Positions 30,148 through 35,396 of a stretch of DNA of 36,403 nucleotides are shown here, one piece after another (position 1 is the first letter of the stretch; each line of letters starts with the position of its first letter). Made by a program: the position numbers and the translations under genes. Below the pieces are notes generated by a model, which searched no databases, had not been told where the DNA came from, and was given only the letters and a program-made list of their open reading frames with translations. The DNA is from a virus (taxonomy: Duplodnaviria; Heunggongvirae; Uroviricota; Caudoviricetes): the IMG/VR virus record IMGVR_UViG_2675903318_000021. The stretch is one strand, 5' to 3'.

Positions 30148-30506
30148 TCCTGCGAGAAGAGGGCAGAAAGGCGGTTAAATTCAGCGGTGTATTCACTCAG
30201 CGAGGCACACCCGCCAGCAGTGCGATGCGCCAGCATTGCCGCAAATACGGAGGCCGGGGAGTCGTAATACGCCAGCAGTGATTCTCCGTGTGGTGTCAGG
30301 CAGTGCAACGCCAGCCCGTGTGGTGTGAAGTCCACGCGGTAGCAGTCGTCTACTGTGAAATAAAGGGTGTCTGCATTCTCTGGTTTTGTGGTGCGTGCTC
30401 TGTTGTCACGACCACGGATGTAGAGATCAAATAATCCCTGAAGAACGGGAGCCAGACGGGTGTCCTGTGTGCGCACCCATCTTGTGAAGTCATGAGCGTC
30501 AATCAT
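30117..30506 (-). CDS. hypothetical early protein, translationally coupled to A
   Basis: 129-aa ORF; stop overlaps A start. Confidence 0.5.
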   Translation of the reverse strand: MIDAHDFTRWVRTQDTRLAPVLQGLFDLYIRGRDNRARTTKPENADTLYFTVDDCYRVDFTPHGLALHCLTPHGESLLAYYDSPASVFAAMLAHRTAGGCASLSEYTAEFNRLSALFSQEWQRVTGYQP

Positions 30507-30596
30507 GCTGCAATTCTCTTTACTACAGATGTGCGAAGGCCTCCCGCCGCAAGGTGCAGGAAAGGCCCGGAACAGGAATTAATGGAGTTTGTTTTG

Positions 30597-30809
30597 CTAC
30601 TGGAAGAGTTGTTGCAGCTCGCGCAGATCATCCGCCAGATAGCTGAAAACAGAGGCGGAATAGATGTTCGATAGCGCGTGGCTGCGCTCATGCAGCATAT
30701 TGATGTGCATGATTTGCGCGACGCGTGATGCGCGGAAAAGTCTACGGTTGATTTCAGTCTGGATGTGACGACGCGCAGCGTATGCGCGCTGTTGTTTGCG
30801 GTTTGCCAT
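30597..30809 (-). CDS. hypothetical small basic protein
   Basis: 70-aa ORF in early operon orientation. Confidence 0.4.
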   Translation of the reverse strand: MANRKQQRAYAARRHIQTEINRRLFRASRVAQIMHINMLHERSHALSNIYSASVFSYLADDLRELQQLFQ

Positions 30810-31131
30810 GGTGTGGCCTCTTTGCTCGGTGATAGAAATAGCTCACCATCCAGAGTTGAGAATCTCGGGGTGGCGAGACGTACAGGGTTCTCAACACCGG
30901 AGAGCAAAGAATCCGGCCCGACCGAAGTCGGCCCCGTACGCCCCGCCATAATTCTGACGCGAAAAAGACGTGGCAATACAGTACGCACAAAAAAACCGCT
31001 GGCGCGGTTATGCGCTTTGCTCTGTATCGGGTTGAGAATCCCGGCACCCGTTTTATGAGGTGCAGCGGAAATGTAACCTGACTGATTGCGGCATGGCAAG
31101 CGGTTTTTTTGTGTGTGCATGTTCTGGTTTC

Positions 31132-31431
31132 TTACTGGTTCAGAAAAAAATCAAAAACCTTGTCAATGCGTTGCAGCAGCTCTTGCTGTATTGCTTCCGG
31201 CGTTTCCGGTTCGCCTGGTGCCTCCAACGTCGCGCAGAAATCAGCGATTTCATGATGGAGTGTCAGGCGAATGGCAGGAGCCGTGGTTCTGGCGTGCTCC
31301 AGCTCATCCAGCAGTGCCAGCACAGCAGACGGCGAGAGCATTGCGCGAAATGCCAGTAATTTTTGAGGCGTTGCCATTCGTTGCAGGGCAAATGCCAGTT
31401 CGCGTAGCTTCTGGTGGTTGATGGTGCTCAT
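31132..31431 (-). CDS. hypothetical early protein
   Basis: 99-aa ORF; stop/start overlap with neighbour. Confidence 0.45.
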   Translation of the reverse strand: MSTINHQKLRELAFALQRMATPQKLLAFRAMLSPSAVLALLDELEHARTTAPAIRLTLHHEIADFCATLEAPGEPETPEAIQQELLQRIDKVFDFFLNQ

Positions 31432-31694
31432 GTTCTGGCTTCCTTTAGTAGCTGGTTAAACATGTGAGTAAGTGGATTGCTACACCCGAACGGCATCGGG
31501 TTTACGTGGTAAGAAGCCTGGCCTCCAGTTTTGCGAGCGCGACCACCTGTGCTGCGGTTTGTTCTGATGACTAAGCCGCCGCGCCAAAGTTGGCGTAACT
31601 CAGCATTAATGGCTGTGGTTGGAGTATTCAGTGCTGCGGCGATCTCTCCGCCGCTACAACCCGGATGAGTAGCGATGTAGTCCAGAATGGTCAT
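31428..31694 (-). CDS. small winged-helix DNA-binding protein candidate
   Basis: 88-aa ORF; segment GCSGGEIAAALNTPTTAINAELRQLWRGGLV resembles a wHTH recognition unit. Confidence 0.45.
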   Translation of the reverse strand: MTILDYIATHPGCSGGEIAAALNTPTTAINAELRQLWRGGLVIRTNRSTGGRARKTGGQASYHVNPMPFGCSNPLTHMFNQLLKEART

Positions 31695-31894
31695 CTGCGT
31701 GGCTCCTGTACCTGTCGGATAAGATTCACCCGCGCCACGTTGGTGGCGCAGAAGTAAGTACCGTCAGTGAGGTAGATGTGGTGTGCATCCTTTTCCGAAC
31801 GATGTTTGTCGATAGTGGTAATCAGGCGTTCGTCGACCTCGTATTCGCGCCCTCTGGAGGTAAAGCGAACGACGGGAAAATGCTTAATTGCCAT
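31691..31894 (-). CDS. hypothetical small protein
   Basis: 67-aa ORF overlapping neighbours by 4 nt. Confidence 0.4.
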   Translation of the reverse strand: MAIKHFPVVRFTSRGREYEVDERLITTIDKHRSEKDAHHIYLTDGTYFCATNVARVNLIRQVQEPRR

Positions 31895-31917
31895 TGCACC
31901 CCCTTTGTCCAGTAACC

Positions 31918-32328
31918 CTATGCGTTAAATACGGTGTGTCGGGCGTCATCAATGAATGCAACTTGAGAGCGCTCTATCAGGCGGAGATTTGTCAGAAGCG
32001 TTGATTCCCTTATGGGGTGAGGAGTGATCAGGTATTTGTTCTGTAATCCGGCGATAATGGTGTATCGCTGTGGCTCCGAGCCAATAGTGTAAATAAGGCG
32101 TCCGGTGTCAGATAAATCCAGTCCGGTGACTGGTTTAGTTTTGAGAAGCGCAAGTTCCACACCCTGTTCTTCGATGATTTTGGCAGCCTCTGCCGTGACT
32201 TTTGCGACTATCATTGTGTGGGTTGCGACGTCCATGTGAGCATTGGCCACGGCTTTTTTCGCTACTTCGCTTTCCATCTTTGAAATTTCTTTCAGTGCTC
32301 TGATGATACCTTCTTCTTTTGCGTGCAT
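31918..32328 (-). CDS. hypothetical early protein
   Basis: 136-aa ORF with GGAG RBS. Confidence 0.45.
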   Translation of the reverse strand: MHAKEEGIIRALKEISKMESEVAKKAVANAHMDVATHTMIVAKVTAEAAKIIEEQGVELALLKTKPVTGLDLSDTGRLIYTIGSEPQRYTIIAGLQNKYLITPHPIRESTLLTNLRLIERSQVAFIDDARHTVFNA

Positions 32329-32421
32329 TTTTGTATCTCCGTTATTTGCGTGTGCGAATACCTCCGTTAATACGGATGGTTTTCACGTTTTCTTATTTAA
32401 TTTGATGTTTTATTTGTATCG

Positions 32422-32535
32422 TTATTCATCAGAGAAAAAACGCTCGATCTTTTTCACTGAATTAATAATTCGCATAATCCCAATGGCGCAGGCCACCGAA
32501 ATAATCAGAACAAGCCATGAGATAAATATACTCAT
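32422..32535 (-). CDS. 37-aa single-pass transmembrane peptide (MSIFISWLVLIISVACAIGIMRIINSVKKIERFFSDE)
   Basis: Not in ORF track; ATG overlaps the TGA stop of the upstream 80-aa gene (ATGA coupling); GGGGAA RBS; hydrophobic helix plus charged tail. Confidence 0.45.
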   Translation of the reverse strand: MSIFISWLVLIISVACAIGIMRIINSVKKIERFFSDE

Positions 32536-32774
32536 GCGATATTCCCCAGCTTATACGGTTCAATATGTTCTCCGCATTCTGCGGCACAGATCAGCTCGGA
32601 AAGTTCGTTAAGTGCATCCAGATCATCAGCGTAAAAAGCCACGTCATACAGACTCCGGATTGCCCTGGTCAATGAGTCACGGGCTGCACGTTCAGCATGA
32701 ACGCCTGATGCGCTTAAGCGAAAATAAAAACGCTCAAGTGCTTTGTTGATGAGTGTTTTATATTCTTTGTCCAT
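32532..32774 (-). CDS. hypothetical small acidic protein
   Basis: 80-aa ORF in early operon. Confidence 0.45.
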   Translation of the reverse strand: MDKEYKTLINKALERFYFRLSASGVHAERAARDSLTRAIRSLYDVAFYADDLDALNELSELICAAECGEHIEPYKLGNIA

Positions 32775-32785
32775 TGCAACACCCT

Positions 32786-33064
32786 TTAATCTGCTTTCTG
32801 AATTTCAGCTTCTGAATCCATGCAGATAATTTCGATATAGGGTTTATCGCCATTAACCTGACGTGCCTTTTCAGCTTCGCTAATGATTTCGTGTACAGTC
32901 TGGTACGGAAGTTCTACGGTCAGGCGCGTGCCGTTCAGATAAACGTAAGTAGCTGCATTTTTTTCTGATGGGACGACTCCATCAATAGCTGATGCGCGTA
33001 ATAACAGTTCACCGCGAAAATCAATAAAACGGATAAATACACCTTGTGCATGCTCTTTGGTCAT
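32786..33064 (-). CDS. hypothetical protein
   Basis: About 92 aa from Met MTKEHAQGVF (listed ORF start at 33124 would overlap upstream gene). Confidence 0.4.
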   Translation of the reverse strand: MTKEHAQGVFIRFIDFRGELLLRASAIDGVVPSEKNAATYVYLNGTRLTVELPYQTVHEIISEAEKARQVNGDKPYIEIICMDSEAEIQKAD

Positions 33065-33074
33065 AAAGCACCTG

Positions 33075-33425
33075 TTATAAATCAGCCTGTTTAATAAAAC
33101 TTTGCCCGCGAAGCAGACGATCAACCGTGCGAAGTGCTTCGTATAATGTGAAATCCTGCCCGAAGTGATTGTCGCCGCAGTTCAATGCAAAAATGCGGTT
33201 TCCGGTAAACGGATTGCGTGGGCATTTGTGGACCACGATTCCAGCTTTCTCAATCAGCCAGGCATGCTCGCCGATTTGTTTTACAGCGTGGCCATCCGGT
33301 GTTGCGTGCGTCTCGTTCAGGTTATAGCGACTGTTACTACGTGATGCACTGGTAGCGACGTGGTGTACATGGCGTTCTACGCCATTACGAAATTTGGAGT
33401 ATGGATTATTAGCGTTTTTTTTCAT
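33075..33425 (-). CDS. hypothetical protein
   Basis: 116-aa ORF in early operon. Confidence 0.45.
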   Translation of the reverse strand: MKKNANNPYSKFRNGVERHVHHVATSASRSNSRYNLNETHATPDGHAVKQIGEHAWLIEKAGIVVHKCPRNPFTGNRIFALNCGDNHFGQDFTLYEALRTVDRLLRGQSFIKQADL

Positions 33426-33446
33426 GATGGTGCTCTGTTCATTGTT

Positions 33447-33650
33447 TTAGCTGTTAGCCAAAGCGTCTTTTAACATCGCCACAAGGTTTACTTCAGGCTT
33501 TTCCATTTTGGCGCGTTTGGGGCGGATAATAATTCGACCGTCAGCCAACATCTTTTTGCACGTATTAAGAGGGATACCTGTTATCTCTGCATATTTCTGC
33601 AGGGATACATAGGGGGCATTCACATTGATATTGATGGTTATACCTGACAT
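33447..33650 (-). CDS. small HTH DNA-binding protein (Cox/AlpA/excisionase-like candidate)
   Basis: 67-aa ORF; YVSLQKYAEITGIPLNTCKKMLADGRI looks like a helix-turn-helix unit. Confidence 0.45.
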   Translation of the reverse strand: MSGITININVNAPYVSLQKYAEITGIPLNTCKKMLADGRIIIRPKRAKMEKPEVNLVAMLKDALANS

Positions 33651-33666
33651 CCCACTAGCCTCCTGA

Positions 33667-33873
33667 TCAGGAAGATTTGTTTTGTTCTTTCTGGGTTAGC
33701 TCTAGGCCGCGAAGGAAGATCATGCGCGCCATGTTAGAGGATGAGCGTTGTTCTTTAGCTGCCATTTCATCAATGACGGCTCGCTCCTCAAGGGACAGCC
33801 GAAGTGCCAGTCTTGGACCTGTGGCGGTGTTACGCGGAATGCGTGATCTGGTATCGTGAAGAACTTGTTTCAT
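33667..33873 (-). CDS. ribbon-helix-helix regulator, first gene of the early (lytic) operon; Cro/Cox-analogous candidate
   Basis: 68-aa ORF; RLALRLSLEERAVIDEMAAKEQRS...MARMIFLRGL fits beta-strand/helix/helix RHH pattern; divergent from repressor gene. Confidence 0.5.
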   Translation of the reverse strand: MKQVLHDTRSRIPRNTATGPRLALRLSLEERAVIDEMAAKEQRSSSNMARMIFLRGLELTQKEQNKSS

Positions 33874-33948: not shown

Positions 33949-34353
33949 ATGAAAAATGATATTGGTCAGCGGTTGCGTGAGGAAAGGGAAAGATTGGGAC
34001 TTAGTCAAGTTGCCATGAGCGACATTGGTGGAGTCAAAAAGCTAACTCAGCTTAGATATGAGAAAGGAGATAGCTTTCCTGATGCTGCGTATTTGGCAGC
34101 GCTGTCTCGTTTTGGCCTTGATGTTCAGTATGTTGTGTTGGGAATTCACTCACCTGAAACTTATAACGATGATGAGCAGGAGTTGATTACTCGCTTTCGA
34201 GCAGCTTCGTTAGATGTGAAAAACGCGGTGATTGGGGCTTTAAAAGGTGCGATCAGTGAAAAGGAAACTCAGCCATCAGGACGTGAGTTAAATATTTCTG
34301 GTGGTAATAACCGTATCGCTGGTCGTGACTATAACGAAACTAAGGGTAGGTGA
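33949..34353 (+). CDS. HTH_XRE-family repressor (immunity repressor candidate, C/CI-like)
   Basis: 134-aa ORF; N-terminal IGQRLREERERLGLSQVAMSDIGGVKKLTQLRYEKG is a canonical XRE-type HTH; divergent from RHH gene and co-oriented with int. Confidence 0.7.
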   Translation: MKNDIGQRLREERERLGLSQVAMSDIGGVKKLTQLRYEKGDSFPDAAYLAALSRFGLDVQYVVLGIHSPETYNDDEQELITRFRAASLDVKNAVIGALKGAISEKETQPSGRELNISGGNNRIAGRDYNETKGR

Positions 34354-34368: not shown

Positions 34369-35019
34369 ATGGCCGTCAACTCAAACGGTTCAAACAATCG
34401 CGTTGCTGGGCGTGATTTTCACGAAAAGAATATTCAGATAGAGCGATATGATGGTTCTCATACTGTCAATATCGCAATCCCTTCGAATAATGATGATGAC
34501 GATCGCCCTTTGCTTAAGGCTCAGCGTAAGGAGCTAAATAGCTTGGTTGCTGCTATTGCAGAAGCTAGCAATACTGAAGCGTTTATTATTTGGCAAAAAG
34601 TACATGCGGAGATTGGTGTAGCTGGTATTGATGATATGACAGTAAATCAATATAAAACAGCGGAGAGTTTTCTGCATGCAATGCTTGAGCGATGTAAAGA
34701 TCATGATGCCTGTAAGGCTCTTGTAAGTTTATTACTACGTAACAGTGAAGACTGTGGACTTCGACAAAAACTTCTGCGGTATTGCCATATCAATTTCGGT
34801 ACAGGACGTTTAAACGATCTTACTCGTTCTCAGTTACAGTCTGCATTGTCGTGGTTAGAGCAACAATCGGCATCAAGCCACACAGAGAGTTCGACCTTAC
34901 CAGAAGTCCGACTTCGTGCTTCAGAATTAATCCGACTTTATCCAAAAGAAATAATATTCTTTATCTGCGTAGGGGTTTTGGTAGGCGGTGTCATTTCTAG
35001 GGCGTTTTTTAATTTGTAA
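34369..35019 (+). CDS. hypothetical protein with C-terminal transmembrane anchor; N-terminus repeats a motif found at the repressor C-terminus
   Basis: 216-aa AT-rich ORF with GGGAGG RBS after three consecutive in-frame stops; C-terminal IIFFICVGVLVGGVI helix; N-terminal NNRVAGRDFHE vs repressor NNRIAGRDYNE. Confidence 0.6.
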   Translation: MAVNSNGSNNRVAGRDFHEKNIQIERYDGSHTVNIAIPSNNDDDDRPLLKAQRKELNSLVAAIAEASNTEAFIIWQKVHAEIGVAGIDDMTVNQYKTAESFLHAMLERCKDHDACKALVSLLLRNSEDCGLRQKLLRYCHINFGTGRLNDLTRSQLQSALSWLEQQSASSHTESSTLPEVRLRASELIRLYPKEIIFFICVGVLVGGVISRAFFNL

Positions 35020-35048: not shown

Positions 35049-35396
35049 ATGAAAGTAAAAAAGGTTCAACTATTAGTTACTTTTTTATCTATGTTTTCTT
35101 TTTCCGCCGTCGCAATGCCTTTTAAAACTATTGAACGTGAGAGTTTCAATGGGGTATGGCCATTTAATTCTGATGAGGTTCAATTACAGTGTCTTGATGG
35201 TAATCCTTATGTGATGAATTTTGACGATAATAAGTTATATGCACTTACAGGTTTGGCTCGAATAAAAGGTAAAACATTTGGTGCGTTACCGTTAGATAAC
35301 AATAATCCATTTTGGCTAGATAATGATGCCGCCCCAGGGTTAAAAAAGAGTCTGGGGGATGTCACTAAGGCTGCATTTGATTTATGTGATAAGTAA
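35049..35396 (+). CDS. small secreted/periplasmic protein (signal peptide; tentatively YebY/DUF2511-like)
   Basis: 115-aa AT-rich ORF; N-terminal MKVKKVQLLVTFLSMFSFSAVA signal sequence; family assignment is from memory only. Confidence 0.55.
   Translation: MKVKKVQLLVTFLSMFSFSAVAMPFKTIERESFNGVWPFNSDEVQLQCLDGNPYVMNFDDNKLYALTGLARIKGKTFGALPLDNNNPFWLDNDAAPGLKKSLGDVTKAAFDLCDK

Follow-up and report, generated by a model that had tools for sequence, protein, structure and literature searches.

A conserved 37-codon membrane peptide gene overlapping DUF4754 in the early operon of a P88-type prophage of Escherichia coli

Early operon of the prophage

The stretch of DNA analysed here, which we call the window over its whole length of 36,403 nucleotides (nt), is IMG/VR record IMGVR_UViG_2675903318_000021 and corresponds to a P2-like prophage of E. 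coli of the P88 type (genus Xuanwuvirus, Peduoviridae). Positions 31918-33425 of its early operon carry five genes, all on the minus strand, in the order DUF4761, a 92-amino-acid (aa) gene, DUF4754, a 37-codon open reading frame (ORF) and a 136-aa gene. We focus on the 37-codon ORF (32422-32535), which codes for a small membrane peptide, on the DUF4754 gene whose stop codon it overlaps, and on a conserved hairpin in the spacer that follows it.

The early operon lies wholly on the minus strand and has at its head a strong promoter-like sequence, TTGACA-17-CAAAAT (33939-33911), which adjoins a divergent helix-turn-helix repressor gene (33949-34353). From there, the order is Arc-like gene, Cox-like gene, DUF4761, 92-aa gene, DUF4754, 37-aa ORF, 93-nt spacer and 136-aa gene, followed by a 67-aa gene, a MarR-type winged helix-turn-helix gene, an Ead/Ea22-like gene, the isrK and C4 RNAs, a Derepression-family gene, a 129-aa gene and replication gene A. 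The first-pass annotation of this DNA had rightly placed the 37-aa ORF in the early operon, between the immunity switch (marked by the promoter-like site) and gene A. Its statement that the operon encodes at least ten small proteins without recognizable function was too broad: profile libraries assign no function to the genes of 31918-33425, but the Arc-like, Cox-like, MarR-type, Ead/Ea22-like and Derepression members can be assigned to families, and the isrK and C4 RNAs are encoded in place of a 205-aa ORF that is drawn over them.

Fourteen phage records match positions 31400-33700 at 85-94% identity, among them P88, P88_4B11, 520873, 503458, vB_EcoM-569R5/705R2, Chuche, PhiR44_2 and Citrobacter phage Shae_phiSM. 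In addition, a prophage of E. coli 2011C-4251 is 100% identical to the window over 32330-32780.

The peptide gene and its upstream partner

The peptide gene (minus strand) is recognized by its reading frame, hydrophobicity, conservation and earlier annotation. The TGA stop codon of DUF4754 occupies positions 32534-32532 and the ATG of the peptide gene positions 32535-32533, which yields a 4-nt ATGA overlap (32532-32535, minus strand); the minus strand reads ...AAGCTGGGGAATATCGCATGAGTATA... at this junction and GGGGAATATCGCATGAGT over a longer stretch. The overlap had been claimed in the first-pass annotation and is confirmed from the sequence; it is also kept in two divergent clades described below. 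A Shine-Dalgarno-like GGGGA (32543-32547, minus strand) lies within the last DUF4754 codons, 7 nt before the ATG, and its duplex with the anti-Shine-Dalgarno sequence is weak (-5.5 kcal/mol here, and -4.2 to -5.5 kcal/mol across this clade). The divergent clades carry GAGGTG, GAGGAG or GAGAGGG (-6.9 to -8.5 kcal/mol), the first two of these 6-8 nt upstream of the start, such purine runs being maintained in every clade despite differing C-terminal residues of the upstream protein. This geometry suggests that the peptide gene is translationally coupled to DUF4754 through the ATGA.

The product of the ORF, MSIFISWLVLIISVACAIGIMRIINSVKKIERFFSDE, consists of a transmembrane (TM) helix at residues 3-21, a conserved juxtamembrane motif, GIMRII, and a charged tail with the pattern K..IE..F. 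Its best 19-residue stretch has a mean Kyte-Doolittle hydropathy of 2.68, versus at most 1.27 for the other proteins of the operon, and the position-independent sum on the Hessa scale for residues 3-21 (about -2.9 kcal/mol) favours membrane insertion. The tail contains four basic and three acidic residues. Two further claims of the first-pass annotation, namely a single TM helix with a charged tail and an AT-rich spacer downstream, are thereby borne out: the 93 nt between the peptide gene and the next gene (32329-32421, minus strand) have a G+C content of 33%, compared with 36% for the peptide ORF and 52% for the whole window.

The upstream gene, DUF4754 (32532-32774, minus strand), encodes an acidic protein of 80 aa (isoelectric point 5.0) that belongs to phrog_2549 and matches Pfam PF15946 over residues 1-80 with a score of 181 bits (gathering threshold, 27 bits). 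Its AlphaFold2 model has a mean predicted local distance difference test score (pLDDT) of 88.2 and contains three helices, and we predict with confidence that the protein is a three-helix bundle. A Foldseek search with this model against PDB and BFVD gave no match at E <= 0.001, and a sequence search of PDB returned nothing below E 0.06 for DUF4754, the 136-aa protein, DUF4761 or the 92-aa protein. Database entries of 103-128 aa assigned to DUF4754 were considered as possible fusions of DUF4754 and the peptide, and rejected as frameshifted or assembly-error reads into other frames.

Conservation of the peptide frame

Related loci, 101 in all, were taken from phage records, IMG/VR contigs, E. 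coli genomes and assemblies of E. albertii and others. In 100 of these loci the frame is uninterrupted and shares ATGA with the end of an intact ORF upstream. The sole exception is the record of phage 503458, in which several single-base indels truncate DUF4754 as well. Conservation of the reading frame in relatives had been set beforehand as the test on which the proposed gene could fail, and the frame is retained.

Codon and frame statistics within the clade of the window were obtained from 39 distinct nucleotide versions. Variable sites are distributed 11/6/18 over the first, second and third codon positions, and the mean pairwise ratio of nonsynonymous to synonymous divergence (dN/dS) is 0.22 for the peptide gene, versus 0.07 for DUF4754. 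Of the five other frames, both on the coding strand and two on the reverse strand contain stops in all 39 sequences, and the remaining one on the reverse strand in 28 of the 39.

When 1.84 billion representative proteins were searched exhaustively with phmmer for more distant relatives, only seven clusters were recovered, all from the same peptide family. Two of these clusters are 41-aa versions (62% and 57% identity), each present on at least about 1000 E. coli contigs. The arrangement in the divergent clades consists, again, of an 80-aa DUF4754 or DUF4754-like gene, an ATGA overlap, a Shine-Dalgarno-like run, the peptide gene and a spacer, and the peptide gene is always adjacent to such a partner in the three clades. 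The two divergent partners are 41% and 28% identical to the DUF4754 of the window, and their scores on PF15946 are 57.9 bits (locus L093) and 23.2 bits (locus L099, below threshold). Between clades, identity is 62-72% for nucleotides, 57-62% for the peptide and 28-45% for the DUF4754 partner. As synonymous divergence is saturated (dS 0.77 to >1.2) while dN is only 0.26-0.32 (dN/dS 0.23-0.34), the frame has been kept by selection on the protein. Positions S6, W7, L10, I11, G19, I20, I23, I24, K28, I30, E31 and F34 are invariant, which is more pattern than a generic membrane anchor requires.

One could argue that the frame is non-functional and stays open through some other constraint, such as structure at the 3' end of the mRNA, an antisense transcript ending at the plus-strand hairpin described below, or mere low divergence. 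The family is indeed narrow, with most copies at least 85% identical, the region is AT-rich, a terminator-like hairpin of the opposite strand lies just downstream, and the extreme C-terminus tolerates frameshifts. However, the frame and the ATGA persist at the between-clade distances given above, third-position changes dominate, stops close one of the other frames in 28/39 sequences and the remaining four in 39/39, and Shine-Dalgarno-like motifs are kept across clades. The conservation between clades makes a non-functional frame very improbable, and these substitution patterns indicate that the 37-codon ORF is a genuine coding gene under purifying selection.

Annotation status and occurrence in genomes

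The first-pass annotation described the ORF as unlisted, which is true of its own ORF list alone, as GenBank and RefSeq records already include the gene. In P88 it is gp07 (SF19_gp07, YP_009113050.1), labelled 'membrane protein', and the label in 569R5 is 'putative membrane protein'. The hypothetical proteins WP_000021659.1 and WP_000021655.1 predicted by the Prokaryotic Genome Annotation Pipeline (PGAP) correspond to the same gene, the latter in O157:H7 EDL933, and the UniRef name is 'Prophage membrane protein'. The peptide of the window aligns over its full length with those of 12 phage records, at 81-97% identity, and is therefore a member of the P88 gp07-type orthologous group; it also lies where members of this group do, immediately behind DUF4754, the stop codon of which overlaps the start codon of the peptide gene.

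The exact peptide sequence of the window is present on at least 1000 public contigs, and the 451-nt region around the gene (32330-32780) is found in 1363 of 5426 complete E. coli genomes. Among the matches listed, 39 of 40 have a 'hypothetical protein' annotated beside DUF4754, and the remaining one aligns over 63 nt only. The peptide gene is already known to annotation pipelines and is very common. A search of genome contigs returned only E. albertii and one suspect 'Vagococcus' contig, from which it follows that the family does not extend beyond Escherichia and close enterics. The suspect contig (NZ_JBQPOM010000071.1, 'Vagococcus sp. WN89Y', a Gram-positive label) bears an E. coli-type prophage segment of this kind, including DUF4754 (98% identity), and this segment is most likely a contamination of the Vagococcus assembly.

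Downstream hairpin and variable slot

The spacer behind the peptide gene contains a conserved hairpin, or palindrome, whose extended stem covers 32354-32386; fold energy, paired changes and conservation among clades all point to it. Its core (32363-32376) reads TCCGT-ATTA-ACGGA on the minus strand. Spacers of about 80-93 nt also follow the peptide gene in the divergent clades, and the hairpin, with the family consensus GAAAAC..ATCCGY-N4-RCGGAGG, is retained in all three clades, the rest of the spacer diverging among them. Its fold energy is -15.8 kcal/mol in the sense orientation (z -4.7) and -13.3 kcal/mol in the antisense orientation (z -3.8). Across 23 distinct versions, three pairs have changed on both sides (GC/AU, CG/UA and CG/UA), and 90.6% of the hairpin cells are paired, versus 26-56% when the 3' partners are slid. 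Such paired changes back a structured RNA or a palindromic site, although the sequences are closely related and the support they bring is not decisive.

The hairpin was considered as a sense-strand intrinsic terminator and rejected, its stem being followed by GGUAUUCGCACACGC, without a U-run. On the plus strand, a conserved GTTTTC/T-rich run follows the hairpin, and a terminator scan flags the plus strand only. The hairpin may act in antisense termination, in processing or stabilization of the early mRNA, or as a palindromic protein site. No promoter for the 136-aa gene was found in the spacer on the minus strand. What is new is that DUF4754, the peptide gene and the downstream hairpin (ATCCGY-N4-RCGGAGG) make up one conserved module.

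Directly after the hairpin lies a variable slot, occupied in the window by the 136-aa gene (31918-32328, minus strand; phrog_9338). The first gene after the hairpin is a 67-aa gene in 44 loci, including P88, and a 136-138-aa gene in 35 loci, including the window, while unrelated genes of 105, 92, 87 or 71 aa occupy the slot in the remaining loci; the 136-aa gene is absent in P88, P88_4B11, PhiR44_2, Chuche and 520873. The 136-aa family is mosaic, with a conserved C-terminal half (KYLITP..RES..LTNLRLIERS..FIDDA) and an N-terminal helical hairpin that is swapped among variants. The AlphaFold2 model is confident for the N-terminal helical hairpin and poor for the C-terminal half, and gave no Foldseek match against PDB at E <= 0.001. 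Sub-significant matches of the N-terminal hairpin to Vipp1/PspA hairpins (E 0.4-2), like the other Foldseek matches of the DUF4754 and 136-aa models, were dismissed as generic helical bundles or hairpins. The known defence hotspot of P2-like phages is located between gpA and gpQ (PMC9122126), and the slot after the hairpin is distinct from it.

Other features of the prophage

Upstream of DUF4754, the operon comprises the 92-aa gene (32786-33064, minus strand; phrog_3800), the 116-aa DUF4761 gene, which is the first after the Cox-like gene (33075-33425, minus strand; Pfam PF15958, 214.6 bits; phrog_2492), the Cox-like gene itself (33650-33447, minus strand; phrog_575) and the Arc-like gene (33873-33667, minus strand; phrog_3431). 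The 68-aa product of this last gene is an Arc-like repressor according to PHROGs (E 1e-28). On the opposite strand of this first early gene, PGAP calls a 45-aa plus-strand ORF (WP_001673482.1, within 33677-33859), a RefSeq call that is probably on the wrong strand. Some relatives carry, between the Cox-like gene and DUF4761, two annotated 35-aa ORFs that overlap by 4 nt (PhiR44_2 and P88_4B11, i.e. loci L004 and L005, positions 2582-2793 of the locus), which are absent from the window.

Further down the operon, the isrK RNA (RF01394, 62.8 bits) and the C4 antisense RNA (RF01695, 78.5 bits) are followed by the Derepression-family gene (PF25738). This module, with an overlapping 205-aa ORF, covers 30866-30953, 30989-31063, 30597-30809 and 30503-31120, all on the minus strand, and the C4-isrK-Derepression array is similar to the antirepressor modules of P1 immI and P4, which are controlled by RNA. 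The 205-aa ORF, named 'transcriptional regulator' in some phage records, overlaps both RNAs; its sole Pfam match, to Phage_ASH, is below threshold (E 0.0016) and coincides with the RNA genes, so that the ORF is probably spurious.

Two extra plus-strand genes are located between the repressor gene and int. The product of the first (34369-35019) has 216 aa and a hydrophobic C-terminus, and that of the second (35049-35396) is a 115-aa DUF2511 protein with a signal-peptide-like N-terminus; both genes are candidate morons for lysogenic conversion or exclusion. In this prophage, the hotspot between gpA and gpQ (25928-26374 and 26244-27203, also 25529-25864, all on the minus strand) contains ParM/StbA (273 and 230 bits) and StbB plasmid-stability genes, as well as a second Ead/Ea22-like gene. 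There is thus an actin-type partition system at a place of a P2-like prophage where defence systems are commoner. Finally, in one of the related loci (L094, GCA_900536625.1, positions 1-2795), Mu-like transposase genes, MuA and MuB, precede DUF4761 by about 1.3 kb, and a single 176-aa gene stands between. The early operon of this locus is otherwise P2-like. It may represent a Mu-like insertion or a hybrid element.

Possible function of the peptide

The reading that we favour, with a probability of roughly 0.55, is that the coupled peptide acts in the inner membrane as an accessory effector during the early lytic programme, by binding a host membrane protein. It builds on observed properties of the gene, namely its coding status, conservation, coupling geometry, hydrophobicity, and linkage to DUF4754 and to the hairpin. 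The position of the gene also speaks for it, both within an operon that runs from the promoter-like site by the repressor gene to gene A and by analogy with the fil and dhr genes of phage 186, which interfere with the host. The peptide would be made early in lytic growth, and the Pe transcript would be its message. Ribosomes terminating on DUF4754 would re-initiate at the ATGA, aided by the weak internal Shine-Dalgarno sequence, so that both products would be made together. Under the positive-inside rule, the topology is N-out, C-in: the two-residue N-terminus is probably periplasmic, and the basic amphipathic tail (GIMRII..K.IE..F) probably cytoplasmic. The three-helix bundle of DUF4754 and the peptide may work as a pair, in which the peptide would bind and modulate an inner-membrane protein or complex of the host as a non-essential accessory function. 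It would in that case be comparable to small membrane proteins with which other phages arrest division or subvert the host in other ways.

Several observations weigh against this proposal. The roles in host takeover, anti-defence or toxicity raised in the first-pass annotation would be guesses, as PADLOC, Pfam, PHROGs, NCBIfam, PDB sequence and fold searches and the literature yielded no link to a function. Searches of the peptide against Pfam, PHROGs, NCBIfam and PADLOC gave noise only, even at E <= 10 (PET117, E 0.025; phrog_5620, E 0.4), and no paper was found that mentions DUF4754, DUF4761 or the peptide accessions. Literature on Xuanwuvirus or P88 likewise yielded no function for these genes, nor did searches with the peptide sequence or with CP-933T. 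The analogy to the fil and dhr genes of phage 186, discussed below, is one of position and not homology. The last seven residues of the peptide are swapped by frameshift or lost in a few apparently intact phages (variants of 30 and 45 aa), suggesting that the extreme tail is dispensable. Finally, the locus L094 combines a DUF4754 of the window type with a 41-aa peptide of the second clade, and this recombinant pairing speaks against an interface of the two proteins that has tightly co-evolved.

Alternatively, the peptide could be a membrane-damaging toxin, type I-like or holin-like, that would depolarize or permeabilize the inner membrane and be neutralized or chaperoned by DUF4754; abortive infection, addiction or the timing of host metabolic shutdown might then be its purpose. 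Its size and its architecture, with an N-terminal TM helix and a charged C-terminal tail, fit toxins of the Fst/Ldr/Hok type, its strong hydrophobicity and single TM helix agree with what defines type I toxins, and the protein to which it is obligatorily coupled is small, soluble and acidic. As in holins, a small membrane protein with a charged C-terminus is encoded; the gene lies between the Cox-like gene and A, and no late lysis cassette with an adjacent endolysin surrounds it. However, the peptide matches no Pfam or NCBIfam toxin family, even at E <= 10, and no Rfam antisense RNA was detected in 31918-33425, nor in or near 32422-32535 at E <= 1. Promoter-like sites on the antisense strand occur at chance frequency (7 found versus 7.6 expected), and the one located at the peptide gene (32451-32478) is within this expectation. 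Moreover, the gene is coupled and internal to an operon instead of being a stand-alone locus with a structured leader, and its conserved polar and charged tail positions suggest a specific contact over bulk membrane damage. We consider a toxin unlikely.

Another explanation is that the peptide serves as an exclusion factor which, like the early T4 proteins Imm and Sp, would stop secondary phages at DNA entry or at some other membrane step while lytic growth is under way. Small inner-membrane proteins are common in superinfection exclusion, and the gene is early, non-structural, very widespread (1363/5426 genomes) and next to a variable slot of accessory genes. Yet an early operon under repressor control is expected to be off in the lysogen, the state in which exclusion is usually of benefit, and the gene is conserved and syntenic, unlike most phage-borne defence cargo. 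Nor does the peptide resemble known exclusion proteins or PADLOC models, and no PHROG match was obtained below E 0.3, exclusion families included. None of the five genes of 31918-33425 has a PADLOC or an NCBIfam match, and the ten proteins of the operon gave a single marginal PADLOC match (E 0.0073), for the MarR-type protein, outside 31918-33425. The known defence hotspot of P2 lies elsewhere, between gpA and gpQ (PMC9122126). On balance, a role in exclusion is improbable, to the same degree as the toxin.

The proposal of an accessory inner-membrane effector can be extended, much more tentatively, to the whole arrangement. DUF4754, the coupled 37-41-aa peptide and the hairpin might represent an undescribed early-lytic module of Xuanwuvirus-type phages, in which the protein pair would inhibit an inner-membrane machine of the host (for example the divisome, an FtsH-like protease or a membrane-bound defence sensor) and the hairpin would bound a recombination slot. 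This slot would exchange early accessory genes, which are candidate counter-defence genes, and the hairpin would perhaps control it.

The peptide region is found in about one in four complete E. coli genomes, O157:H7 EDL933 among them. If the peptide and DUF4754 do target a membrane machine of the host, they would provide a compact phage probe of division, membrane proteolysis or defence, and the slot after the hairpin is a possible place for early accessory, perhaps counter-defence, genes in P2-like phages. As it stands, our analysis mainly confirms the call of this tiny gene by automatic annotation, to which the module and the slot are modest additions.

Comparison with known systems

The closest counterparts of the peptide gene are P88 gp07 and its RefSeq and UniRef equivalents, which are the same gene: position after DUF4754, ATGA overlap and length of 37 aa are shared, identity is 81-97%, and records of the gp07 type show no difference of substance from the gene of the window. 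Positional analogues are found in phage 186, with the order apl-cII-fil-dhr-tR1, and in P2, with the order cox-orf78-B-terminator (putative). As in our locus, the first operon segment ends with small genes, here fil/dhr and orf78-B, which are followed by an RNA structure, and in both phages a block of non-essential genes lies between this intergenic RNA structure and A. The hairpin described here, for its part, has no U-run on the sense strand. The 186 proteins Fil and Dhr, which inhibit cell division and host replication, are soluble and have 75 and 66 aa, unlike the membrane peptide, and the genes of our locus and those of 186 and P2 have no similarity in sequence, BLASTP having returned nothing meaningful. 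A link between DUF4754 and P2 gpB, hinted at by BLASTP (E 0.003 in a set of 14 sequences), was rejected on the basis of hhalign (probability 1.7%).

Type I toxins of the Fst, Ldr, Hok and TisB families are, like the peptide, shorter than 60 aa and made of a single hydrophobic helix plus a charged tail. The peptide differs from them in having neither an antisense RNA, nor a stand-alone locus, nor a match to their families, and in being coupled to an upstream protein gene. SPO1 gp56, which blocks division, and T4 Imm and Sp resemble the peptide in being early and non-structural and in having one TM helix, and, as proposed for the peptide, they act on the inner membrane of the host; they are longer (about 80 aa) and are unrelated to it in sequence. 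We know of no coupling of these proteins to a DUF4754-like partner.

Finally, the peptide has the size and architecture of several small inner-membrane regulators of E. coli, namely AcrZ, MgrB, MgtS, Blr and CydX. Blr shares with it a W-[IL]-V-L-[VI]-[VI]-S-V stretch (9/32 identities, within the TM segment). Homology with Blr was rejected, as this is a resemblance in TM composition and the exhaustive phmmer search did not recover Blr. The members of this class act by binding a larger membrane protein, which is the mode of action that we propose for the peptide.

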